DNA of 58,695 nt from a virus (Duplodnaviria > Caudoviricetes). The position numbers and the translations under genes were made by a program. The stretch covers positions 1-58,695 of the IMG/VR virus record IMGVR_UViG_3300034175_000127; one strand, written 5' to 3'. The notes beneath the pieces were generated by a model, which searched no databases, was not told where the DNA came from, and saw nothing but the letters and a program-made list of their open reading frames with translations. Below are positions 1-58,695 of this stretch, piece by piece; the stretch's first letter is position 1, and every line of letters begins with the position of its first letter.

Positions 1-3000
1 AAGCGGCCACAAGTCTCGCTCGTATTGACAACATTCTCGATACGGGCCAGAAGTCGTTTGATCGTTACGGCTCGGCTCTGGTCGCCTTGGGTGCTGATGG
101 TGCATCTACGGAAAGCGAAATCACCGAGATGTCGCAGCGCCTCGCAGGTCAGGCCAAGCAGATCGGTTTGTCAGCGCCACAGGTTCTAGCCTTTGGCGCG
201 GCAATGGCGTCGGTTGGTATCGAGTCCGAAGCAGGCGGCACGTCGATGTCCAAAAACTGGAAGGAAATCGACTCAGCAGTGCGCGCAGGTGGCAAGAGCC
301 TCGAAAACGTAGCTAAAGTCGCTGGAATGACCGCTTCTGAATTCAAGCGGGCATGGCAAACCGATGCAGCGGGTGCAACGGTGGCGTTCGTCGAAGGACT
401 CTCAAAAATTGGCGCCGCAGGTGGCAACGTCGCGGGCACGCTCGAAAAGCTCGGCATGACCGATAGCCGCCAACAAGATGCCTTTATCCGTCTGGCGGGC
501 GCGAGTGGACTTCTGGCAAACAGCCTCCAGACTGGCGAAACAGCATGGCGCGAAAACTCGGCGATGGTGACAGAAGCGGGCAAACGCTACGAAACGACAG
601 CCTCACAGCTTCAAATTCTGCAAAACCGTGCGCGTGAGTTAGCCATTCAAGCCTCTGAAGTTGTTTTGCCCGGTGTCAATCGTGAATTGAAGGGATTCTC
701 CGATGGCATTCCCGAAAACGCGCAAAAAATCGCCGCTGCCTACGATGCCCTGGGTCCAGCAGGCCAAAAAGCAATTATTGGCCTGTTGGGTATTGGAGTC
801 GTCTCAGGCCCGATTTTGAAAGTTGCGGGCAATGTGATGACGCTTACGGGCGCGCTAGTGAAGCTGGGCGGTTGGGTTTTGCCGTCTACGCTGACCGCTT
901 CGCTTGCTGGCCTTGCTCCGCTTTTGGCTAATCCATTGGTTGGTATTCCGCTTCTGGTCACCGCGCTCGGCGTCGGCGCTATTGCGTGGGAAAATTATAA
1001 AGCCAAGGTCGAAGACTCTCTGACTGCTCAGCACAATGCGGAGATGAGCGCGCGCAGTTTGGCCTCGGCTCTGGAACGCGCTCAGGAATATGCAGGCACT
1101 AGCAGTGCTGCAAAATCTTCGCTGGGCCGGTTGCAAGAAGACGCCAAGGCCGCAGGGCAAGACACCGACAAGTTGATTGCGCTCATTAAAAAAGCGACGG
1201 ATGCCAAAGTAACTGTCGGCAAAGATATGAAGCTCGATCCGCTGGCTAAAAACGCGGTTCAGAACGAGTTACAGCGCTTCATTAACAACTTGTCGTCGAA
1301 GACCATCGAACTGAATGTGAAGCTCAAAGGCGCCGTTGAGTCAGCGCAGGGCCAAAACACAGGTTTGGCTAACCTTGCGGCGTCCGAACTCAGCTTCCAG
1401 CAACGTGCCCAGCGAGCGGGTGTCTCCATTCCCACGAGGCCAGCGGCGAGCCGACCTGCTACGTTTATGGAGCGGCTAACGACGGGTTCAGACACCATCA
1501 ACAACACAGCCGCCATTGAGCGCTACAATCTGGCGATGGATAATGCCAATTCACGCGTTTTGGCATGGGAGCGCGCTAATTTGCGGGCCAGTGGCACAGC
1601 CCGCGCCGCAACGGCGGCCACAACCCAAAAGCTGACTGAGCAAAACAAGCTGGTTTCGGATTTAACCGACAAAGAACTTGCACGCGAGAAAAAGCGGCTC
1701 GAAAACATGGCAGCTCAGGGCAAGCTCACGATGGGCGCAGGCAGCTATGACGCGGGCGCTTATCAGCGGTCGCTCGAAGTGCAGGATGAAGCCAAGGAGC
1801 GCGCATCGGCGGCGAAATCTAAAAGTGATGCTGACAAGCGAGAGAAAGAGCTCGCATCGGGCCGCGCGCGGGATGAAGCACAACGCAAAAGTGAAGAGGC
1901 GGCTCTGAAGCGACAGCAGGAAGCTGAAGCGATTGCCGATCAGGCGCGCCACGATTTGGGACGTTCGCTCCAGGACCAACTAAGCGACTGGAAAACCTTT
2001 GAGGGTGTGGTCGATAGTGTGCGCTCCAATCTGGCTCAAACCGCTGAGGCGGGCAGTGCAGTGAGCGAAAAAACCGCGCGCGCCAAAGTCGAAGCGCAGC
2101 TCGCGCGCAGCGAATTTGATGGAATTCCCCAACCGCTCAAAGAAAGTGCGGTGGCGTTGGCTGGAATCCAGGTGCAGCTCCAGAAGATTGTAGGCACCCG
2201 CGACGCTGTGCGCGAAACGTTTAACGGCATTTTCGCGGGCCTTGGCAGCAGCGATCAAGCGAAATTTGCAGCGTTCGCACAGCGTTTACAAAATGATTTG
2301 AAGTTGGGAGAACAGGCTAAAGCGCTGGCCGATGACGCGCAGCGCCACAGTCGCACCCTCGATAGCGCGGTGAGCGGTCGCACTTCCTCACTCGAGTCAC
2401 AAATTCGGGCGAATCAATTGGCAGGGCGCAAACCGTTTGACGATCCGAATAACCCAAACGATGGCAGAGCCAACGGCGACTTAGTGAGCGCCGCGCGTGC
2501 CTTCGTGGGAGCGACCGGCGCCGATATGCGTGCGTCGGGCAAAGCTCACGGCTTAGAGTGGTGTGTTGGCTTTATTCAGGCGCGCCGCGAGGAACTGGGA
2601 CAAGAACCTTTAGCGGGCGGGACTTTGAAAGTCAAAGGTCTGCGTTCGTGGGCCGAAAAAGCGGGCCGCACAACCATTGACCCGCAGGCTGGTGACATCT
2701 TCACCCGCGTTGTGGGTGGCGAGCGCCATGCCGCGATTGTGGCTTCTCGTAAGGGCAACACGGTTACAACTATTGGCGGCAATGAGGGAGGCGAACGCAA
2801 CAACCTCAAATCACGAGTCGTCGAAGGCGCAACCTACAACATCAATGCGCCCGGCGTGGTCTTCATTCGACCTGATGCAGCGCCTGGGCCTTCAGCCAAT
2901 GTTTCGATAGAGCCCAGCGTCTCGACACTTTCGGATGCGGCTGCTTACAAGCGTTGGAAAGCCTCGGTTGGCTCCGATGGTCTGACACCCGAAGAACGCG

Positions 3001-5093
3001 CCAGCAACAAAACGCCCGCTACCTCCTCACAAAGTCCATCTGTTGCGTCGCCAGCTACTAACGGATCTCGCACTGCGCCTTTGGGCCAGTTCGATTCTCG
3101 TCTTTTAACAGCGCGTGCACTTCCAAACTCTTTTGGCCCCAGCATGGCCGATTATCAGGCACGCGATGGCGAATCCACGAAGTTTCGGCAGGATCTCGAA
3201 ACCCTCATCACACAGCTTTTAGGTCGAGGTGTGAAGCTTTCAGACGCTTCGATTAAAGATGCAGGGAAAACCGCACTTAACCTCGATTTGAGCGCCAGCC
3301 GACGCGAGGCGACCCGCGAAGCCTATCGTGAGATGGCTGGCCTTAATCGTGACATTCGACTTATTGGACGCGAAAACAACCCGTATTTGGCGCTGCTTGA
3401 AGAATTTGAGAGTGGTGGAGCCGAATTCGTCACAGCGGTCGCTAAAAACCGCAAGCTGGGCACCGTGCTTTCGTTCATGAAAGGCCAGCTGCAACAGGGA
3501 ACTGATGAATTAGTCAAGGAGGCCAGCCGCGCGGCACGAATCGCATCGGAAAATCTGGGGATGTTGGGCGCAAACTATAACGGTGCTGATTATGAAAGGG
3601 CACAGTTCCAGACTGAAAAACGGTTTGAAATCTGGGAATCGCCGGATATCGTCGCCACATCTCAGACCATAGAAAAATTGCGAGGGCAGGGCCAAGAACA
3701 CCAGGCACTCGCTCTTCAAAAGGATCTTAATACCGAAGCGACACGCCGCCTGACAGCCGCGATGCAAGCGTATGATTCAAACGCTCATTCGCGCGCTCTG
3801 GTTGGCCACGCAGAACAATTGAAAGCGTTGAAAGATGAGGCCGATGCTCTCGAAAACCTCATCAGGTTGCGTGGCCAAACTGGAATTGCTCGTGGCTTGG
3901 CCGATGACCACGCCGCAGCGGATGAAGCGGAGAAAAAAGCGCGCGAAAAATTCCAGCCTTTGGTCAACAGTGGGAAGATCACTCAGGATGAAGCGGATGA
4001 AATGGTGCGCGACGTGGGTGAATCGACGTTTGGCAACGCTCAGAGAAAACGGGGGAGCAACCAAAACACCTCGCTTGAGGACTATAACGCGGCTCTGCGT
4101 GACAACATGGCGTTGCTCTCAGACCAAAAGCGAGCACACGAAACGATGGCTGTGGACTCGCCGGAGCTAGAAACCGAGATTGCGCTGTTGCAGGAACGGG
4201 CGCGGTTGTTGTCCAACGAATTCAAAGACCGTGTTGGTCGAGACGCAAAAGGCGGGCTGGTAATTCCTGCTGATGTTCAAACAGAACTGGAGCAGCGTTT
4301 GGGTTTGAAGCGAGAAGAGCTTCAGCTTGAAAGCCAACTCGCCCGCGTTGTGAAAGAGCGCCAGAACTTGCTTTCTCTGCAAAACAGCGTGTTGGACGAG
4401 CAAATGCAGCGCGAAATGACGCGTGCCGATACAGCGCGGGAACGCTTGGAGATTGAACTCCGCTACGAAGCTCAGAAACGAGAATTTGCCGCAGAAGCAG
4501 AAACAGCCGCAGAAGCTGCTGCACGAACGCAGCTCGACAACGAACGCAAAATCAGTGCGGCCCAAGAAGACCGTATCACGAGGGAGAAAGCCAACGCAGA
4601 GCAACTGAAAGGCGCTTTTGGGATGCTTCTTAATGGAGATATAAGCGGGATGGGGAATCAAGTGATGGGGAATTTTAAAGATTCAATTTCCCGAAAAGCG
4701 GCTGATTTCCTTTCAGGACGTGGCAAGGGAGATCAGTCACCTAACCCGTGGAACAATCCCGATTTCACGCCCGATTTTGGCACTCGCATGGGGCCAGAGA
4801 AGTTTCTTCCTAACCCGCAGAAATTCCCTGGCATTCCAGCGAGCACATCGGCGGGAGATATTGCGGGTGCTGTGCGTGCGGCTCTGGCCGGTGGTATCAT
4901 GGCCGCGCGTGTTGAAGTGCGAACCGGACAAACTAATGTGCAGGGAATGAATGTAAATGTGGCTGGCGGAGGCAATGGCGGCAATGCAACTGGTCTTATG
5001 AATCTGATGCTTAGCGGCCGCGACAATGGTTCTGGCGGCAGTGGGACGACACCAACGACTGCACAGAGCGTGTCGGGAGTTATTGAAGCATGA
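1..5093 (+). CDS. Tail tape measure protein (TP901-type), C-terminal part, with internal CHAP-like domain at about 2481-2877
   Basis: Frame is open from base 3 (AATSLARIDNIL...LGADGASTESEI). TP901-like motifs (GIESEAGGTSMS, KRYETTASQL), long helical Ala/Glu/Gln-rich body, CHAP-like WCVGF...GDIF...HAAIV...TIGGN. Lies directly upstream of the tail-tip genes. Confidence 0.92.
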   Translation, partial: AATSLARIDNILDTGQKSFDRYGSALVALGADGASTESEITEMSQRLAGQAKQIGLSAPQVLAFGAAMASVGIESEAGGTSMSKNWKEIDSAVRAGGKSLENVAKVAGMTASEFKRAWQTDAAGATVAFVEGLSKIGAAGGNVAGTLEKLGMTDSRQQDAFIRLAGASGLLANSLQTGETAWRENSAMVTEAGKRYETTASQLQILQNRARELAIQASEVVLPGVNRELKGFSDGIPENAQKIAAAYDALGPAGQKAIIGLLGIGVVSGPILKVAGNVMTLTGALVKLGGWVLPSTLTASLAGLAPLLANPLVGIPLLVTALGVGAIAWENYKAKVEDSLTAQHNAEMSARSLASALERAQEYAGTSSAAKSSLGRLQEDAKAAGQDTDKLIALIKKATDAKVTVGKDMKLDPLAKNAVQNELQRFINNLSSKTIELNVKLKGAVESAQGQNTGLANLAASELSFQQRAQRAGVSIPTRPAASRPATFMERLTTGSDTINNTAAIERYNLAMDNANSRVLAWERANLRASGTARAATAATTQKLTEQNKLVSDLTDKELAREKKRLENMAAQGKLTMGAGSYDAGAYQRSLEVQDEAKERASAAKSKSDADKREKELASGRARDEAQRKSEEAALKRQQEAEAIADQARHDLGRSLQDQLSDWKTFEGVVDSVRSNLAQTAEAGSAVSEKTARAKVEAQLARSEFDGIPQPLKESAVALAGIQVQLQKIVGTRDAVRETFNGIFAGLGSSDQAKFAAFAQRLQNDLKLGEQAKALADDAQRHSRTLDSAVSGRTSSLESQIRANQLAGRKPFDDPNNPNDGRANGDLVSAARAFVGATGADMRASGKAHGLEWCVGFIQARREELGQEPLAGGTLKVKGLRSWAEKAGRTTIDPQAGDIFTRVVGGERHAAIVASRKGNTVTTIGGNEGGERNNLKSRVVEGATYNINAPGVVFIRPDAAPGPSANVSIEPSVSTLSDAAAYKRWKASVGSDGLTPEERASNKTPATSSQSPSVASPATNGSRTAPLGQFDSRLLTARALPNSFGPSMADYQARDGESTKFRQDLETLITQLLGRGVKLSDASIKDAGKTALNLDLSASRREATREAYREMAGLNRDIRLIGRENNPYLALLEEFESGGAEFVTAVAKNRKLGTVLSFMKGQLQQGTDELVKEASRAARIASENLGMLGANYNGADYERAQFQTEKRFEIWESPDIVATSQTIEKLRGQGQEHQALALQKDLNTEATRRLTAAMQAYDSNAHSRALVGHAEQLKALKDEADALENLIRLRGQTGIARGLADDHAAADEAEKKAREKFQPLVNSGKITQDEADEMVRDVGESTFGNAQRKRGSNQNTSLEDYNAALRDNMALLSDQKRAHETMAVDSPELETEIALLQERARLLSNEFKDRVGRDAKGGLVIPADVQTELEQRLGLKREELQLESQLARVVKERQNLLSLQNSVLDEQMQREMTRADTARERLEIELRYEAQKREFAAEAETAAEAAARTQLDNERKISAAQEDRITREKANAEQLKGAFGMLLNGDISGMGNQVMGNFKDSISRKAADFLSGRGKGDQSPNPWNNPDFTPDFGTRMGPEKFLPNPQKFPGIPASTSAGDIAGAVRAALAGGIMAARVEVRTGQTNVQGMNVNVAGGGNGGNATGLMNLMLSGRDNGSGGSGTTPTTAQSVSGVIEA

Positions 5094-6617: not shown

Positions 6618-9164
6618 ATGAATTTCCTGGGTTCTCTCGTCAACATCGGCGCCGCGTTCGCAACCGGCGGCGCCGCGTTGTATTGGCAAATTGCGGCTGT
6701 CGCGTATGGCGTTATCAAGGGTGGCCCAGAACAAAAAGGGCCAAGACTCAATGACCTCACCATCACTCTTGACGGCGAAGGGCAAGCGATTAGTCGGGGT
6801 TGGGGCCGTTGGCGTCAAGAGCAGTTGCGGCTCTTGTGGACAACGGGCCTGCTCGAAGACAAAAGCAGCAAGCGAAAGGGTGGTTTGTTTGGAATCGGCG
6901 GCACCAAGATTACCAGCTATAAATACAGCGCGAGCGGCTTATTGCTGGGCGGGAAAGGCCCAGTCACGCGTTTGCGGCGCCTCCAATTGAACCAGCACGT
7001 TGAATACGACTATGGCGACGGCGATGAAAAAGGACTGACGCTGACATGGAACGGCCAATTTTGGAGCAGCGCACCGATTTCAACGGCCTTACCGCCACCT
7101 CCATCACTCTTTAGCCGATGGGGTTTTCGAGTCAATCCGGCGGCCACGAGCAACGCGAATTTAATTGTTCGCGTTTATCCCGGCACTCTGGCTCAGCCGG
7201 TCGATTCGTTGCTTGTGGCCGCGAAAGGCGCTGACGAATGGACGAATTATCCCGACAAGTGGATTGTCGCGGTCGAAATCAAAAATCTGGAAAAATACGG
7301 CAACTCGATGCCGCGCATTTCGGTTGAGATGGAATATGCTCAAACCGATCTGGCCGAGGTAATTTTAGAAGTCGCTTCGTGGGTGGGGTTAGAAGCTGCG
7401 GATTTCGATTTGAGCGCGCTCGAAGGTCTGAGCGTGGCGACGAATGGGATGGTCGGTTTTCAGGTCGATTCCAGGCGCAAGGCGTGTGACATCATTGGCG
7501 AGCTAATGGACATCTACCATTTCAGCTTGCCGGAAGTGGACGGCGTTCTGCGCGCTGTGCGTCGTCCAAGTGGCTTTTTGGTCGAGCTTGATGAGAACGC
7601 GCTTCGTGTGCGCGCTGGCTATGAAGCGGGTGAAGTGGCTGGCGCGCCGCTTTCTGAGCGCGACGAAGAGAGTCTTTCGCGGGACAGCGAATATTTGTTT
7701 CGTGATCCAAACCGCGAATTTGCGCCCGGCTATCGCTATTCAAGGCGCTTCGATGCGGCCACAACTCGCAAGAACACCCAACAAACCGGCGCCAGCATGG
7801 AAGGCTCGCGCGCATCGAGCGTCATTCGTGTCTTGCAAGCGGAAGAGTGGGCCGGTGCGCGAGGTAGAAAGGGCACACGCGGCCTTGAGGCGCTGATAGA
7901 CGCCGCTGGTGATGAAGGCTGGATTGCTACGCCCGATGGTGCGGTTCCGATGGTGCTGGATCAAACCGACGTGCCGCTTTTTGGACCAGTAGGCGAGACG
8001 TGGCAGGGCTTAGACCCGCTCGTTTACAACTTGCCTCTGCGCGACGAAACGGCAGGTCTTACGCGGCGCACACCAATCGAGCGCGGCTTTCCCATCGTTT
8101 GGGCGGGCGAATGTTCCTTCGTGGAGGGCTCAGGTGCGTGGATTACTCAGAAATCGTTTGTCATTGGCGTGTGCCGTAGCATCGGTGACTTGCGATGGAA
8201 TGGTGCTGATGTGGAGATCGAGCGCCGTGAACCGGGCGGCGACTGGATAGAAGTGGCTGAAACCGGAGTCGGCGACGAGTCGATCATCGGTGAACTGACT
8301 GCACCTTGGACACCCACAGAAGGTTTTTCGAGCGATGGTTTCTCATGCCAACTCTACGGCGGCGCACTCACTTCAACGACGGAAGCCCTGGCGCTCAGCG
8401 GCGCGAATCTGGCTTTGTTCGAGAATGGCATGGCCGTTGTCATTCAGACCGCAACACAAACCGCAGCAAACGCCAACAGCAAGTTCTACAGCACAACGAA
8501 CCTGACCAGCGGCATTTATGGAACAGATGACTTCCTAGAACCGCTGGCAGCGGGCGCTCGCTTCATAATTCTCAACGATGCAAACGCGCTTCCGCTTGAT
8601 GGGCCGGAGTGGAAAACATTGCCAACGGCGCCGGTCTTAGGGTCTGAGTTTCGTCTCATCGTGCAGGAAGATGGCGCGCAGGGTGAAGAGGTTGTGTGGA
8701 CGCTCGGTGAGTTCGAGGGCGAAAACATTCGCACGCCATCGCCTGCTGTCGAGGCTACGCGAGACATCGACGGTGGCCTGAGTCTGGTGGTAGCAGGTCG
8801 CACGCGCTATCTCGAAGACATGGATTTGGACGCGTTGCCCAGTGGCGCAACCTACCGAGAAACGTCAACACCAAGCGGCTTCAAGTTTCAGATTATTTTG
8901 ACTTGCGAGGGCGCTAGTGTGACGGTAACGCACTATTCGACCGACGAGCGCGCAGAATTTGATTTTGCATGGACGGCGGGCGAACTGGCAACGCTACTTT
9001 CGCTCTCCGAAGCGCAAATTGCGGCCAATGAAATTACGGGCACGTTAGCTCTGTGGGGCGCGACTGCGCTCGGTAGGGCAGCGAACTTCTCGGCTTCTCC
9101 CTTAAATGGCGAGGTTGTCGATGAAAATTACGGATTCTTCCCATTATTTGAAAGTTGGAGCTAA
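6618..9164 (+). CDS. Tail tip/host-specificity protein (GTA g15, Phage-tail_3-like)
   Basis: GPRLNDL, YPGTLAQPVDS, YGNSMPRISVE motifs; 848 aa; position after the hub gene. Confidence 0.8.
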   Translation: MNFLGSLVNIGAAFATGGAALYWQIAAVAYGVIKGGPEQKGPRLNDLTITLDGEGQAISRGWGRWRQEQLRLLWTTGLLEDKSSKRKGGLFGIGGTKITSYKYSASGLLLGGKGPVTRLRRLQLNQHVEYDYGDGDEKGLTLTWNGQFWSSAPISTALPPPPSLFSRWGFRVNPAATSNANLIVRVYPGTLAQPVDSLLVAAKGADEWTNYPDKWIVAVEIKNLEKYGNSMPRISVEMEYAQTDLAEVILEVASWVGLEAADFDLSALEGLSVATNGMVGFQVDSRRKACDIIGELMDIYHFSLPEVDGVLRAVRRPSGFLVELDENALRVRAGYEAGEVAGAPLSERDEESLSRDSEYLFRDPNREFAPGYRYSRRFDAATTRKNTQQTGASMEGSRASSVIRVLQAEEWAGARGRKGTRGLEALIDAAGDEGWIATPDGAVPMVLDQTDVPLFGPVGETWQGLDPLVYNLPLRDETAGLTRRTPIERGFPIVWAGECSFVEGSGAWITQKSFVIGVCRSIGDLRWNGADVEIERREPGGDWIEVAETGVGDESIIGELTAPWTPTEGFSSDGFSCQLYGGALTSTTEALALSGANLALFENGMAVVIQTATQTAANANSKFYSTTNLTSGIYGTDDFLEPLAAGARFIILNDANALPLDGPEWKTLPTAPVLGSEFRLIVQEDGAQGEEVVWTLGEFEGENIRTPSPAVEATRDIDGGLSLVVAGRTRYLEDMDLDALPSGATYRETSTPSGFKFQIILTCEGASVTVTHYSTDERAEFDFAWTAGELATLLSLSEAQIAANEITGTLALWGATALGRAANFSASPLNGEVVDENYGFFPLFESWS

Positions 9165-11226: not shown

Positions 11227-12287
11227 GTTACAAACCAGGCGATGTTGTTTACCTCTCGCTCCCAACGCAAAACAGCACCGGTGCAGCAACCAACGCTGAC
11301 TCTACACCTGCCGTGATTGTCAGGCGTAACGGCGTCACCGATGCAACCGTGACGCCGACCGTCTCCAATGCAGCAACGGGCCTTTATAACGTCTCGTTCA
11401 CAATCCCTGTGGGCTACGCGGCGGGCGACACGGTAGCAGCTCTCGCACAGGTTACAATGGGCGGCGTCACCGGGCCTTACACCGCGATTTGGCGCCAGCA
11501 ACTCGACACGGCGCGCGTTTCCGAGGTCCATTCACGACTCGGCGTGGCGGGTGCTGGGTTAACCGCTCTCGGCGACACCCGTATCGCAAACCTCGACACG
11601 ACAGTTTCGAGCCGTTCCACCTTTGCGGGCGGCGCGGTGGCGAGCGTGACGGCACCGGTTACTCTCCCGGCCACAGCCGCACTTGAGGCTACCGTGCAGA
11701 GTGTTAAAGCGAAAACGGATTTGCTTCCGTCTGACCCTGCCGACGCCTCAGATATTGCGGGCGCTTTTAGCACCGTGAATACGACGCTGGCAGCCATCGC
11801 AGCCTACATTGATACCGAGGTCGCGGCCATCAAAGCGAAAACCGATGCGTTGCCTTCAGATCCCGCCGATGCGTCTGAGATTGCTGCGTCATTTACTGCA
11901 ATCGCGGCATCTCTTGCAACCTTGAGCGGGTATGTTGACACAGAAGTTGCGGCTATCAAAGCGAAAACCGACAATCTGCCCGCTTCTCCTGCTGCGGTCG
12001 GTTCTGCTATGACGCTAGAAACAGCCGAGCGAACAGCTATCCGCACCGAAATCGACGCCAATAGCACACAGTTCAAGCGGCTTCTGGGACTTAATCAGGA
12101 AAACGCAGTGTTCGATGATACGACTTACGCCGATGGGAAGCTCACTGCTGCGACCGTGTATGTTTACGATTCGAAAGCGAACGCTGTGACTCACAACAAA
12201 GTGACTGGGCTCTTGTTCAAATACTCGATTGCCCAGACATTTGTGAGCGGCAATCGCACTGTCGGCAAAGTTTTGCGCGAAACCTAA
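11223..12287 (+). CDS. Tail fibre/appendage-like protein with Ig-like N-terminus and 42-aa repeats
   Basis: TGLYNVSFTIP N-terminal domain; KAKTDxLP units starting at 11706, 11832 and 11958. Confidence 0.65.
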   Translation: MSYKPGDVVYLSLPTQNSTGAATNADSTPAVIVRRNGVTDATVTPTVSNAATGLYNVSFTIPVGYAAGDTVAALAQVTMGGVTGPYTAIWRQQLDTARVSEVHSRLGVAGAGLTALGDTRIANLDTTVSSRSTFAGGAVASVTAPVTLPATAALEATVQSVKAKTDLLPSDPADASDIAGAFSTVNTTLAAIAAYIDTEVAAIKAKTDALPSDPADASEIAASFTAIAASLATLSGYVDTEVAAIKAKTDNLPASPAAVGSAMTLETAERTAIRTEIDANSTQFKRLLGLNQENAVFDDTTYADGKLTAATVYVYDSKANAVTHNKVTGLLFKYSIAQTFVSGNRTVGKVLRET

Positions 12288-12304
12288 TAACAAATGAGAA
12301 ACCA

Positions 12305-12334
12305 AAAGGGCCGCTGCAATTGCAGCGGCCCTTT
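12305..12334. terminator. Bidirectional intrinsic terminator between the convergent tail and lysis operons
   Basis: Perfect 30-bp palindrome AAAGGGCCGCTGCAATTGCAGCGGCCCTTT between convergent stop codons. Confidence 0.8.
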
Positions 12335-12349
12335 CTTGTTCTGGGGTTA

Positions 12350-13369
12350 TTATTTAGCGTGATCGAGCAAGCGAGCGATGCGCGCCGCCAATTCGATAGG
12401 AGGCATAGGCTTCTCCCAAATGTCGGCAATTTGATGGGAGTGGCAATCTTCCGCGCTAACACGGCGTTTATTGCCCGTGAAAAAAGCGATAAGCGTTGGA
12501 TTGGCCAGTGTTTCCCTTACGCGAATTTCGTGAGCTACCTCACATCCATCCATGCCTGGCATCTCGTAATCGAGAATGACGACATCGAAGGCGTGGCCGG
12601 CTGTCTGAGCGTCAACGAATTGCTGTATCGCGTCGCGTCCGCTTGATGCCATCCTGATTTCAAAATAGGGGCTGAGTCCCATTTCAAACAGCGTGCGAGT
12701 GTCGGCTGCATCCTCCACCATCAAGACGCGAATGCGAGTAGGTATCACGTTTGGAACATCGTGAATCTTGGGCGGAATAGGGCAGAGCGTGCCGAACCAT
12801 CCCAAGATGTCGCCTTTAGGACTGCACATCACTTCGCCTTTGCCAATGACAGGCACAATTTGACCGTCTGGCCGCTGGATTCGATACGGAATGACACAAT
12901 CGCGTCCATCGGTGACAACCGAGGCCCATTTAGAAGTCACGTCGGCCACATCAGGCGGATAAACCGTGTTTTTCCAGTTGGAGCCCATCAAGTCCTCAAT
13001 GGAGTGTCCGACCAGCTCAGCAAAACGCCGGTTAACCTTGATGATTTCACCGTTAGCATTGGTTTCCCACTGTGCAATTTCTTCCAGATTGAACTTCGCT
13101 TGCTCCCGCGCTTCGCTTTTTGTGACAAGGATTTCCACGCGTTTAACCGAATCGTTGAGACTCGATCCACCATTAGGCCGGACTTCCTTATGGATTTCCT
13201 GCACCAGCTTTTGCGTTTGACCAAAGGATTTGAGGAATGTCACAATGCCCTTGCCGACGTTGAAACACCCCAGAAAAACGGTTTTGGTTTGCTTCCAAAA
13301 CACGAGCAAAATGGTGAGGAACGCACTCAACACCATAATCTGCTGTTTAAATTGATCAAAGAATTCCAT
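12350..13369 (-). CDS. Membrane-anchored PAS + receiver (REC) domain protein in the lysis operon
   Basis: N-terminal TM and NGGSSLND motif; PAS (VNRRFAELVG...VYPPD...YRIQRPDG); REC with VED, DYEMPGMDG, FTG, EKP. ATG overlaps the endolysin TAA. Confidence 0.85.
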   Translation of the reverse strand: MEFFDQFKQQIMVLSAFLTILLVFWKQTKTVFLGCFNVGKGIVTFLKSFGQTQKLVQEIHKEVRPNGGSSLNDSVKRVEILVTKSEAREQAKFNLEEIAQWETNANGEIIKVNRRFAELVGHSIEDLMGSNWKNTVYPPDVADVTSKWASVVTDGRDCVIPYRIQRPDGQIVPVIGKGEVMCSPKGDILGWFGTLCPIPPKIHDVPNVIPTRIRVLMVEDAADTRTLFEMGLSPYFEIRMASSGRDAIQQFVDAQTAGHAFDVVILDYEMPGMDGCEVAHEIRVRETLANPTLIAFFTGNKRRVSAEDCHSHQIADIWEKPMPPIELAARIARLLDHAK

Positions 13370-13941
13370 TATTTCGCCACCACCGAGCTTGCATCCACCA
13401 GCAAATAGGGCAATTTTGCTATGCCTGCGCGGTTCATTTCGGCGTAAACGAGCGCAATAAATGCGCTGTATTGGTCAGGTGGCAAAGTCTGGCAACCTTC
13501 GGAGTAGGTATTGTTCACGCCGCCACGGTGGATGTTGATAGCTACGCCAGGGCGTGGGTTTGTCTGCTGGTCGCGTGAAACCGGCACTTGCTCGTTAACG
13601 GTCGCTGGCCGGAGTGCAGCATAGGGCACAAACGGCGGTTTGCGCGAGATGCCGTGCTTGCCCTTTTTATACCAATGCACGCCCAAACGAAGCGTAGCCA
13701 TGCCATACCGAAATAGTGATGGGTCGGTATTAGCGTTGAATGAAGTGAATGTGTGGGGAGAGACGACAAACATCGCGTCGTCGTAAACGCCACGATCGTT
13801 GCCCGGACTCCCAAAAGTGTGGGAATAATAGCCGCGCACACCCACAAGTGCCACAGGAGCAGTAACGCCGTGTTTTTTGAGCAGTGCGCGCACTTCGGCT
13901 TCTGTAAGTCGGGGGCGCGCTGAGGGAATGATGGGTTTCAT
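13369..13941 (-). CDS. Putative endolysin, L,D-transpeptidase(YkuD)-like
   Basis: INIHRGG...SEGCQT His/Cys catalytic motif; follows the holin-like gene. Confidence 0.7.
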   Translation of the reverse strand: MKPIIPSARPRLTEAEVRALLKKHGVTAPVALVGVRGYYSHTFGSPGNDRGVYDDAMFVVSPHTFTSFNANTDPSLFRYGMATLRLGVHWYKKGKHGISRKPPFVPYAALRPATVNEQVPVSRDQQTNPRPGVAINIHRGGVNNTYSEGCQTLPPDQYSAFIALVYAEMNRAGIAKLPYLLVDASSVVAK

Positions 13942-14390
13942 AATTTGGTGTCGATCTCGTAAGAGACGTTGGGGATTCCGTCTTCAGGGTCGTTGGGTAG
14001 GCCTGGTATCGGCGTGCCGTGTAGTGGTCTTCCGTGAACGCGCCGAATCGGTTGCCCGTATTCTTGTGAGGGAAGCGTCTGCGCACGCGGTTCTGGCGGC
14101 GCAGGCAAAATGTCGGTTTGCTCTTCGAGAGCATCAGCGACACCCAAAGGCTTCCAAAAACCTTTGAAGAACACGATGGTAGCTCCCAAAATAGTCAGCG
14201 TGGAACCGGTGAGGTTGGTCGCAGTGAGTTCACCTTTGAGCGAGACCTCGATGAACGCCGCAATTAAACAGACAATCGCAGCAGCGGTCGTTTTAATGGG
14301 TTTAGACCAGTGGGATTGGATGACGATAGACACGATCAGGGGCATGATGAAACTTACAATGCCAGTCCAGAGGTCAATTGATGGGGACAA
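13938..14390 (-). CDS. Putative holin (three TM segments)
   Basis: Three hydrophobic helices; TTG start at 14390 preceded by AAGGAG; overlaps the endolysin start. Confidence 0.7.
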   Translation of the reverse strand: MSPSIDLWTGIVSFIMPLIVSIVIQSHWSKPIKTTAAAIVCLIAAFIEVSLKGELTATNLTGSTLTILGATIVFFKGFWKPLGVADALEEQTDILPAPPEPRAQTLPSQEYGQPIRRVHGRPLHGTPIPGLPNDPEDGIPNVSYEIDTKL

Positions 14391-14447
14391 AACAAACTCC
14401 TTAGCCGTAAAAATCGCACGCGAAAAAGCGGGCAGCGGCTCAAACAA

Positions 14448-14476
14448 ATTGTAGGGCCGCAAACCCGCTTTGTGAA
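14448..14476 (-). promoter_or_regulatory. Sigma70-like promoter of the lysis operon
   Basis: TTCACA-17 nt-TACAAT on the minus strand. Confidence 0.55.
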
Positions 14477-57958: not shown

Positions 57959-58695
57959 ATGGCAGACGTTCTTACACTCCGGACAATTTTTCAGGGCGAT
58001 GACTCCAACGTGCGCGCGGTTGCGCGTGCTGTGGACAGGCTCATTGACGAGACCATTGCCAAGCGTCGCGGCTCCATCGTCCTGCCGATTCAAATCGGTA
58101 GCGGTTCCGGTGGAAGTGGCGGCGGTTTTGGCGGCAATCCCGAAAAAATTATTGCGGCCACTCTTGCCAAAATCGAGCAGGTCGAGAAGGTGTCTGCGGC
58201 CAGACAAGCCCAAATCGCGGGCGAAGGTGAAGCCAAACGTGCAGCTATCGAGGCTCAGGGCACGCAGCGGAGACTCAATCAACAGGCTCAAGCTCAGGCT
58301 CGTTTGGAAGCTCAACAGAGCGCGCATCTCCAGAAGCTGATTCAAAATCAGGAAAAAGCGGAGCAGCGTTTGGCGCTCAAGCCAAAAATGACGCTGGAAC
58401 AACGTGGCGAGCGTTTGCAAAACCTCGGAGGCTCGCTCAATCAAGCGGGCAACTCGCTCACGATGGGCGTGACGGCACCTGTTGTCGGCACAGCGGGTTT
58501 GGCTTTGCGTGAAGGCATCAAATTCGAGTCGAACTTTGCAGATGTCAAAAAGACCGTAGACGGCACGCTGATTCAGCTTGGGCGCATCCGATCTGAACTG
58601 CGCGAGATGTCCGCAGGAAAAAGCCCGATCCCAATTGATGTGAACGAACTGGCGCAAATCGCGGCCAGTGCGGGCGAACTCGGCATCCGGACTCC
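57959..58695 (+). CDS. Tape measure protein, N-terminal part (runs off the window end)
   Basis: MADVLTLR...LTMGVTAPVV...FESNFADVKKTVDG...ELAQIAASAGELGIRT; no stop codon before the window end. Confidence 0.9.
   Translation, partial: MADVLTLRTIFQGDDSNVRAVARAVDRLIDETIAKRRGSIVLPIQIGSGSGGSGGGFGGNPEKIIAATLAKIEQVEKVSAARQAQIAGEGEAKRAAIEAQGTQRRLNQQAQAQARLEAQQSAHLQKLIQNQEKAEQRLALKPKMTLEQRGERLQNLGGSLNQAGNSLTMGVTAPVVGTAGLALREGIKFESNFADVKKTVDGTLIQLGRIRSELREMSAGKSPIPIDVNELAQIAASAGELGIRT

Follow-up and report, generated by a model that had tools for sequence, protein, structure and literature searches.

A phage membrane protein with PAS and receiver domains at the end of a putative lysis cassette

What does a protein built from a membrane helix, a PAS domain and a two-component receiver do at the end of what looks like a phage lysis cassette? 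The question is raised by the IMG/VR virus record IMGVR_UViG_3300034175_000127, a linear record of 58,695 bases with a completeness rating of about 64%, which was analysed over its whole length and is called the window below. Three minus-strand open reading frames (ORFs) occupy positions 12350-14462 of the window and encode a holin candidate, a lysin and a 339-residue protein that we refer to as the sensor. Lysis timing sets phage burst size and fitness, and antiholins and dual-start holins are known to read membrane energisation or superinfection. Our preferred answer, to which we give a rough probability of 0.42, is that the sensor is a partner or regulator of the holin within the lysis cassette whose cytoplasmic tail has been turned into a signal input.

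The sensor and its place in the cassette

The three genes follow one another without gaps. The lysin ATG overlaps the stop codon of the holin candidate (ATGA) and the sensor ATG shares one base with the lysin stop (TAATG), an overlap that the initial annotation of this DNA had already pointed out. A promoter-like site stands upstream of the first gene and, 15 bases past the sensor gene, a hairpin separates the end of the cassette at 12350, where a long minus-strand gene array stops, from the end of a convergent tail-fibre-like gene at 12287, where the plus-strand structural genes stop (Table 1). With overlapping starts and stops, a promoter-like site in front and a strong terminator directly behind, the three-gene lysis unit proposed in that annotation is borne out, and holin candidate, lysin and sensor appear to be laid out as a single promoter-to-terminator unit and are probably co-transcribed. 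Promoters and terminators were called by consensus match only, giving 4 promoter-like sites in the region against 2.7 +/- 1.3 in shuffled sequences, and 12 terminator-like sites against 6.2 +/- 2.8. The hairpin behind the sensor gene is the strongest terminator-like one of the region; a weak one at 13301-13281 within the sensor gene was taken as chance given the shuffle background. G+C content at third codon positions (GC3) in the sensor gene (0.565) matches that of its neighbours (0.576), which argues that the gene is no fresh insertion. Neither the cassette (12350-14462) nor its flanks showed a spanin-like gene, whether for a lipobox protein, which related YkuD-lysin cassettes do carry, or for a coiled-coil protein with a type-II transmembrane (TM) segment.

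The domains of the sensor are readily recognised. PAS_3 (PF08447) matches residues 109-194 (E 2.3e-12; 47.4 bits against a cut-off of 25.6) and Response_reg (PF00072) matches residues 215-331 (E 6.1e-14; 52.6 bits against a cut-off of 30.2), the latter over positions 1-110 of the 111 in the profile, and a six-frame search of the window returned this one receiver only (55.3 bits). The receiver has an acidic pair (E219/D220), a phosphoacceptor aspartate (D267, in LDYEMP), T298 and K320, which we take to occupy the corresponding CheY positions from the motifs and from alignment to 3a0r_B, a stand-alone response regulator that is its best solved relative (E 3e-8). The Pfam matches and these residues agree with the PAS domain, acidic pocket, Asp, Thr and Lys described earlier from the sequence, and the receiver looks phosphorylatable. 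In NCBIfam it comes closest to PleD-type regulators and to the receivers at the C-terminus of hybrid kinases (EspC, LetS, ArcB, BarA). The earlier statement that the window encodes no histidine kinase also holds: neither HisKA nor HATPase_c was found in the sensor or in six frames of the window, a record that is about 64% complete, so that the phage might still encode a kinase in its missing part. Within the sensor the spacer between PAS and receiver is 16 residues long, which leaves no room for kinase domains, and a reading of the protein as a degenerate histidine kinase was rejected since there is no space for the dimerisation and histidine phosphotransfer (DHp) and catalytic (CA) domains.

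A receiver that is followed by no output domain, in a window that encodes no kinase, would also be in place if it served at the membrane as a decoy, or phosphate sink, that drains or intercepts the phosphoryl groups of a histidine kinase or phosphotransfer protein of the host and so re-programs a host response late in infection, for example in stress, dormancy or motility. The gene would then sit after the lysin because this is the usual spot for accessory cargo before a terminator. The hybrid-kinase and PleD types that the receiver resembles join phosphorelays, the membrane anchor would bring it close to the sensor kinases of the host, receivers are known from several phage families (phrog_731, phrog_5982 and phrog_20458), and the PAS-bearing relatives described below lie mostly away from lysins. 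A decoy leaves unexplained, however, why the anchor should be a phage-specific module with a PNGGSS motif that recurs in lysis cassettes, and why the sensor start codon overlaps the lysin stop; moreover the receiver was joined to an older, receiverless TM-motif-PAS protein and so gives the impression of an input acquired later, not of the protein's core function. On balance we consider the decoy function rather unlikely.

An AlphaFold model of the sensor, with an overall predicted local distance difference test (pLDDT) score of 84.8, gives a helix at residues 2-63, a break at 64-68 coinciding with P-N-G-G-S and a second helix at 69-95 that runs into the PAS domain, itself modelled as a five-stranded sheet with flanking helices over residues 99-197 (pLDDT about 90-97). 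Scores fall below 50 at residues 60-67, and the linker between PAS and receiver is also of low confidence. By hydropathy the only hydrophobic segment comprises residues 11-25, preceded by a stretch of net charge -1 (residues 1-10) and followed by four lysines within residues 26-47. From the positive-inside rule, which is a rule of thumb, and from the need of a receiver for the cytoplasm, we infer an N-out/C-in topology. The possibility that the sensor is an i-spanin was rejected, as it would place the receiver in the periplasm.

The membrane module and its relatives in other phages

The N-terminal 95 residues of the sensor would correspond to a phage-specific, small, single-pass membrane module that is common inside lysis cassettes. 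They carry the motif E-x-[RK]-P-N-G-G-S-S, with E62, P65, N66, G68 and D73 invariant in 9 family members, and residues 57-87 match phrog_9869 ('unknown function'; E 2.2e-4). The pattern K-E-[VF]-[RK]-P-N-G-G was found at 62 IMG/VR loci, 60 of them with a complete motif ORF, of which 53 encode single-TM proteins of 65-138 residues and 7 are PAS-bearing forms; each of the five small motif proteins tested matched phrog_9869. Clustering of the small proteins at 80% identity gave 16 clusters, whose neighbour families were taken from one representative per BLAST cluster. Amidase_2 or Peptidase_M15_4 occurs no more than two genes downstream of the motif gene in 5 clusters, and in 4 further ones the motif gene adjoins Phage_holin_9 or an unclassified TM protein of 70-90 residues, so that in 9 of the 16 the motif gene stands immediately before genes for a holin-like protein and/or a lysin; another 5 have an unclear context. 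As a side observation, the loci L019 and L031 represent the same 72-residue motif gene near both ends of one 18.5-kb IMG/VR contig, directly upstream of the large terminase, a duplication that looks like the terminal repeat of a circularly assembled genome.

Cultured actinophages provided a set of motif proteins that was reached by tblastn, independently of the pattern. HHalign of a module profile built from the PAS-bearing proteins against five of them gave a probability of 97.4% (E 9.6e-12, 45 columns); against the small IMG/VR proteins it gave 99.4%, a value that is partly circular because these targets were retrieved by the motif. The profile check of the N-terminal module thus links it, over a short region, to actinophage lysis-cassette proteins, and together with phrog_9869 and the 9 of 16 clusters it sustains the earlier impression that the N-terminus resembles small membrane proteins found beside phage lysins. 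An annotated lysin lies within two genes of the motif protein in 5 of the 7 cultured actinophage records (Table 1); no annotated lysin was found near the motif gene of LiSara or BIM BV-113. In Thermobifida phage P1312 the motif protein is labelled 'sensory protein kinase CreC', which is almost certainly a mis-annotation.

Proteins that share the whole architecture of the sensor are few. Among 5.8 billion clustered proteins there are two full-length relatives only, P0002 (326 residues; 47% identity over 94% of the sensor) and P0003 (358 residues; 33% over 83%), both with motif, PAS and receiver; the receiver fusion was found in these and the sensor alone, and all three retain the catalytic residues of the receiver. 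Another relative, P0005, ends after the PAS domain. A profile search for TM-motif-PAS proteins in 1.84 billion representatives was dominated by multi-PAS proteins, the true family members among the best 150 matches being P0191, P0208, P0227, P0262, P0002 and P0003, and family size is a lower bound. With tblastn against 50,697 phage records the whole sensor had no match at E <= 1e-5 and the small IMG/VR motif proteins had none at E <= 0.01. A homologue search with the N-terminal 96 residues by themselves gave no candidate with three 5-residue words in common. No locus matching from the motif through the receiver was found in IMG/VR, JGI metagenomes or GTDB genomes; in the latter two most matches were generic PAS or receiver domains.

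Relatives without a receiver are more widespread. Proteins of about 200 residues with TM helix, motif and PAS were found by pattern and tblastn in IMG/VR (L002-L008) and in JGI metagenomes (L074, L075 and L083). Identity of the sensor to these viral proteins is 36-38% in the PAS domain and 25-39% over residues 47-198, and the structural match had a TM-score of 0.72, normalised to the target. In the ESM Atlas four clusters (72, 74, 65 and 50 members) of 183-229 residues, all of them 100% viral, match the N-terminal part of the sensor structurally; PAS families were assigned to most members of three and to about a quarter of the fourth. Because TM-motif-PAS relatives lacking the receiver are numerous and viral, the core appears to be a virus-only TM-motif-PAS family to which the receiver would be a rare later addition. 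That the receiver was joined on only once is suggested solely by how alike the three receivers are. In the tree of the TM-motif-PAS region 8 of 9 inner branches lack support; by path length L002 is the PAS-bearing relative nearest to the sensor after P0002 and P0003.

Two further observations concern this family. P0227 (385 residues) carries the motif and PAS unit twice, a degenerate motif (K-N-G-K-S-L...I-E) after the first PAS being followed by a second PAS, which suggests that the helix-motif-helix and the PAS domain duplicate as one unit. At L074, a plus-strand ORF (8446-8658) that starts 5 bases after the TM-motif-PAS gene encodes a 70-residue protein with two hydrophobic stretches, a holin-like form; the genes around it look like nucleotide metabolism and not like lysins.

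That the receiver-bearing members number only three might suggest a decaying fusion, a non-functional gene or an artefact of gene calling or assembly. We regard all of these as highly improbable in view of 339 open codons, the preservation of every catalytic and family-invariant residue, the common architecture of the two homologues at the identities and coverages given above, and a model that is confident for both PAS and receiver. Furthermore, identical window DNA recurs with zero differences in contigs from several biocrust (soil-crust) metagenome runs; no RNA run was among the matches listed. The contig of one separate run covers 12924-13408 and crosses the lysin/sensor junction with no differences, and the junction is therefore not an assembly artefact of one sample.

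The series of TM-motif proteins, the same with PAS and the same with PAS and receiver leads us to assign the effector role to the TM helix and motif and the role of inputs to the domains added later. We propose that the sensor is the last gene product of a phage lysis cassette made up of holin candidate, YkuD-fold lysin and sensor, and that in its lineage the tail of the module was extended stepwise, by PAS first and then by the receiver. The TM and motif module would be the output, working in the membrane either together with the holin or upon it, and PAS and receiver would be its inputs on the cytoplasmic side. If D267 were phosphorylated by a host kinase, a histidine phosphotransfer (Hpt) or other phosphotransfer protein, or acetyl phosphate, and/or PAS sensed a cue, the oligomeric state of the cytoplasmic part would shift, and this shift would advance or delay hole formation and thereby couple lysis timing to host physiology. 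A broader version of the proposal is possible but doubtful: that a holin-partner type of membrane protein in the lysis cassette doubles as a two-component receiver, that the lysis clock responds directly and post-translationally to the kinases of the host (or acetyl phosphate) and to a cue sensed by PAS, and that the members of the TM-PNGGSS-PAS family as a whole are widespread, so far undescribed signal-gated lysis regulators that arose as sensor domains joined a small lysis protein step by step.

Several observations weigh against a role of the sensor in lysis. Seven other TM-motif-PAS lineages were considered (L002, L003/4, L005/6, L007/8/L076, L074, L075 and L083; only a few neighbours were scanned against families), and a search among them for TM-PAS genes beside lysins, as the initial annotation had suggested, succeeded for one: L002 is followed directly by Peptidase_M15_3 and two TM proteins, whereas the other six have no recognisable lysin and stand in tail, structural, nucleotide-metabolism or jumbo-phage contexts. 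Among the small motif proteins, 2 of the 16 clusters (18 loci) are upstream of the large terminase and not of lysis genes. A PN[GA]G protein within three ORFs of a YkuD lysin was found in 0 of the best 80 loci, so that this type of lysin works without the motif protein. The homology of the module rests on 40-45 residues. We found no tested function for the PNGGSS motif family, the RefSeq 'holin' labels on several of its proteins being annotation only; the searches with actinophage motif proteins found no mycobacteriophage, and the mycobacteriophage protein LysF1b, to which the sensor is compared below, is likened to it by topology and not by sequence. Finally, soluble PAS and receiver proteins of similar size are common in bacteria and the cytoplasmic part alone is ordinary.

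Some of these contexts bear on the idea that the sensor serves a process other than lysis, such as superinfection exclusion, control of late development or a role in the virion or envelope, that the TM-motif(-PAS) family has some general task in membranes, and that its proximity to lysins reflects nothing but a common position after the tail genes. L005/6 and L083 lie between tail-fibre and other structural genes, as the 18 loci lie before the terminase; other members occur in a jumbo phage among glycosyltransferase-like genes, and L074 is found by thymidylate-synthase-like genes. The family names are of the same tenor, phrog_9869 being of 'unknown function' and P0002 weakly matching phrog_404 'minor tail protein' (E 6.5e-4). 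P0002 also weakly matches phrog_15431 'holin' (E 1.7e-4), which the 339-residue sensor does not. Against a non-lysis function, the window, L002 and five cultured actinophages all have the gene immediately next to a lysin or holin gene, or overlapping one, and not just in the same region; we consider such a function unlikely.

The lysin, the holin candidate and the surrounding record

The lysin, the 190-residue product of the middle gene, has no match in Pfam (at E <= 0.1) or in NCBIfam, the YkuD models included; it matches phrog_3000, to which no function is assigned (E 2.5e-6). A model built on 33 sequences (pLDDT 87.8, predicted TM-score 0.87) was used for structural comparison. Foldseek returned nothing at E <= 0.001; its best, weak matches were Csd6 and LdtMt1 (E about 5e-3, the best value being 5.3e-3; probability 0.97-0.98), with Pgp2, Bd1075 and DpaA also present, and all of the best matches are YkuD-fold enzymes. 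VIA-align superposed the lysin on Pgp2 with Z 9.1 and a root-mean-square deviation (rmsd) of 3.5 over 119 residues and on Csd6 with Z 9.0 and an rmsd of 3.5 over 122 residues, and 40 of the 41 VIA-align entries among the matches listed have the YkuD fold. H138, S147, G149 and C150 are unchanged across the 33 sequences, and we presume from the motif that H138 and S147-x-G149-C150 are equivalent to the His/Cys motif that is catalytic in L,D-transpeptidases and L,D-carboxypeptidases.

Relatives comprise at least 833 clustered proteins of similar length and, in IMG/VR, 454 stretches. Among the 120 relatives listed, 21 bear the JGI name 'lysozyme', 3 are hypothetical and the rest are nameless; the closest among the matches listed (82% identity) is in a metagenome-assembled genome labelled Armatimonadetes. 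Neighbourhoods were counted at the best 80 of the 454 IMG/VR loci (L122-L201). Upstream of the lysin relatives there is a tail-fibre-like protein in 48 of the 80, small TM proteins in 30 and 16 of the 80, and a 77-residue protein with a lipobox-like LTGC in 30 of the 80; a metallophosphoesterase-like gene (phrog_221, E 4e-18) is often found downstream. Because of the fold, the conserved motif, the name 'lysozyme' on relatives and their lysis-cassette-like context, we accept the 190-residue protein as an endolysin, predicted to be a cysteine L,D-peptidase. The endolysin claim of the initial annotation stands on fold, invariant motif and context of relatives, but not on membership of any Pfam or NCBIfam family. 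The protein would be a sequence-divergent branch of the YkuD fold and, with its relatives, seems to represent a type of cysteine L,D-peptidase endolysin that has yet to be described. It has no signal peptide and no hydrophobic N-terminus, and the idea that the sensor is the partner of a signal-arrest-release (SAR) or signal-anchored lysin was rejected on the latter ground.

The ORF of the holin candidate (13938-14462, minus strand) has its first TTG at 14462, which would give 174 residues. Since TAAGGAG at 14403-14397 stands before it, TTG 14390 is a far more likely start, giving 150 residues. Hydropathy shows two clear helices (about residues 5-25 and 33-52), a weaker third one and a hydrophilic, proline-rich tail of about 70 residues. 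No Pfam, PHROG or NCBIfam family matched. What remains of the earlier holin claim is a membrane protein with two or three TM helices ahead of the lysin, with its start corrected and with no family match, and its membrane character and position suggest the role of a holin.

The window as a whole belongs to a tailed phage, with PHROG matches to a tail protein (E 5e-46), a portal (E 3e-24), a primase/helicase (E 3e-124) and RecT-like and ParB-like proteins. Both ends of the record lie inside plus-strand ORFs, one 5'-open (3-5093, 1696 residues) and one 3'-open (57959-58693, 245 residues); their frames fail to join on simple circularisation, so the portion of the genome between them is missing.

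Table 1. Features of the putative lysis cassette in the window, and motif proteins near lysis genes in cultured actinophages
Feature	Position	Strand	Description and basis
Promoter-like site	14448..14476	-	TTCACA, 17 nt, TACAAT; 10/12 of sigma-70-like consensus; just upstream of cassette
Holin candidate	13938..14390	-	150 residues from TTG 14390; role suggested by membrane character and position
Lysin, YkuD fold	13369..13941	-	190 residues; fold, motif and context of relatives
PAS-receiver membrane protein (sensor)	12350..13369	-	339 residues; Pfam, sequence, model (pLDDT 84.8)
Predicted TM helix of sensor	13295..13339	-	Residues 11-25, IMVLSAFLTILLVFW; hydropathy
Juxtamembrane motif of sensor	13133..13186	-	Residues 62-79, EVRPNGGSSLNDSVKRVE; family conservation, phrog_9869, HHalign
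PAS domain of sensor	12779..13075	-	Residues 99-197; PAS_3 match and model
Receiver (REC) of sensor	12356..12730	-	Residues 214-338; E219, D220, D267, T298, K320
Bidirectional intrinsic terminator (predicted)	12304..12335	both	14-bp perfect stem, 9 G-C pairs, T-runs on each strand
Thermobifida phage P1312 gp040	L010 4695..5138		147 residues, single TM, PN-x-G-x-S-L-R-D; overlaps amidase gene
Streptomyces phage mu1/6			Order: endolysin gp50, holin gp51, motif protein gp52
Streptomyces phage TurkishDelight			Order: endolysin 35, holin 36, 'membrane protein' 37 (motif protein)
Arthrobacter phage Sonali			Order: motif protein gp22, endolysin 23, holin 24
Arthrobacter phage Mufasa8			Order: motif protein gp22 (RefSeq 'holin'), metallo-endopeptidase

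Significance and comparison with known systems

Full-text searches over a limited set of publications found none on holin-like PAS-domain bacteriophage proteins; among the matches listed for phage-encoded response regulators, or for PAS proteins linked with lysis or antiholins, none had the architecture of the sensor. Bacterial PAS and receiver proteins are already known, as are phage receiver families; what appears to be new is the fusion of PAS and receiver inputs to a membrane module of phage lysis cassettes. If our proposal were correct the sensor would connect signal transduction or the metabolic state of the host straight to the decision to lyse, which would be useful in habitats such as soil crusts, where hosts alternate between active and dormant states. 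A signal-gated lysis module of this kind would also be handy as a part for synthetic biology. The analysis has in addition exposed two uncharacterised phage-specific families, the PNGGSS single-pass lysis-cassette proteins and the TM-PAS proteins of about 200 residues, and with them a large family of YkuD-fold lysins that Pfam does not cover.

The nearest systems by sequence are the small proteins of phrog_9869. Like the sensor they have an N-terminal TM helix, a basic juxtamembrane stretch and a motif followed by a helix, they adjoin endolysin or holin genes, and they share with it the motif E-x-x-P-N-x-G-x-S-[LI]-[RK]-D-x-[VIL]-x-R-[IL]-E. They are 65-184 residues long and end soon after the motif, whereas the sensor carries 240 more residues comprising PAS and receiver; the actinophage motif proteins have an extra stretch of RPGVP repeats that the sensor does not. 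As judged from sequence, the sensor is a fusion built on the phrog_9869 module and not a plain member of that family. The viral TM-motif-PAS proteins of about 200 residues have the same order of TM helix, motif and PAS, one of them (L002) beside a lysin, and differ from the sensor in the absence of the receiver.

Known cases in which a signal reaches the lysis decision differ in where the sensing takes place. The T4 antiholin RI is membrane-anchored, senses a signal and retimes lysis via the holin, its periplasmic sensor reading superinfection. RI and the sensor are both membrane-anchored phage proteins with no sequence relation, and the PAS and receiver domains of the latter are predicted to be cytoplasmic. 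In bacteria the LytSR two-component system controls the holin-like CidA/LrgA through a DNA-binding response regulator; it acts on transcription from the host genome, whereas the receiver of the sensor is phage-encoded and part of the membrane protein itself. VqmA of vibriophage VP882 is a phage PAS receptor that reads a host cue and decides when the host lyses. Unlike the sensor, it is a soluble transcription factor for the lysis-lysogeny switch, with no receiver, and not a membrane protein of a lysis cassette. The receiver-like domain treated in a review on jumbo phages (PMC7824862) is a different one and has no bearing on the sensor.

The closest experimentally studied analogue, by topology, would seem to be LysF1b of the F1-cluster mycobacteriophages Girr and NormanBulbieJr. 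LysF1b is a protein of 124 residues that is genetically required for efficient and correctly timed lysis; it works with a holin-like partner of two transmembrane domains, and its gene is part of the lysis cassette, again with a start codon that overlaps (10.64898/2025.12.04.692442). LysF1b differs from the sensor in a highly charged tail devoid of PAS or receiver and in a Gram-positive host of the mycolata, and resembles it in a single N-terminal transmembrane domain, a predicted N-out/C-in topology, an extended helical cytoplasmic part and a place among the lysis genes. The result with LysF1b indicates that proteins of this single-span, N-out/C-in class can act in lysis, which is the role that we propose for the sensor.

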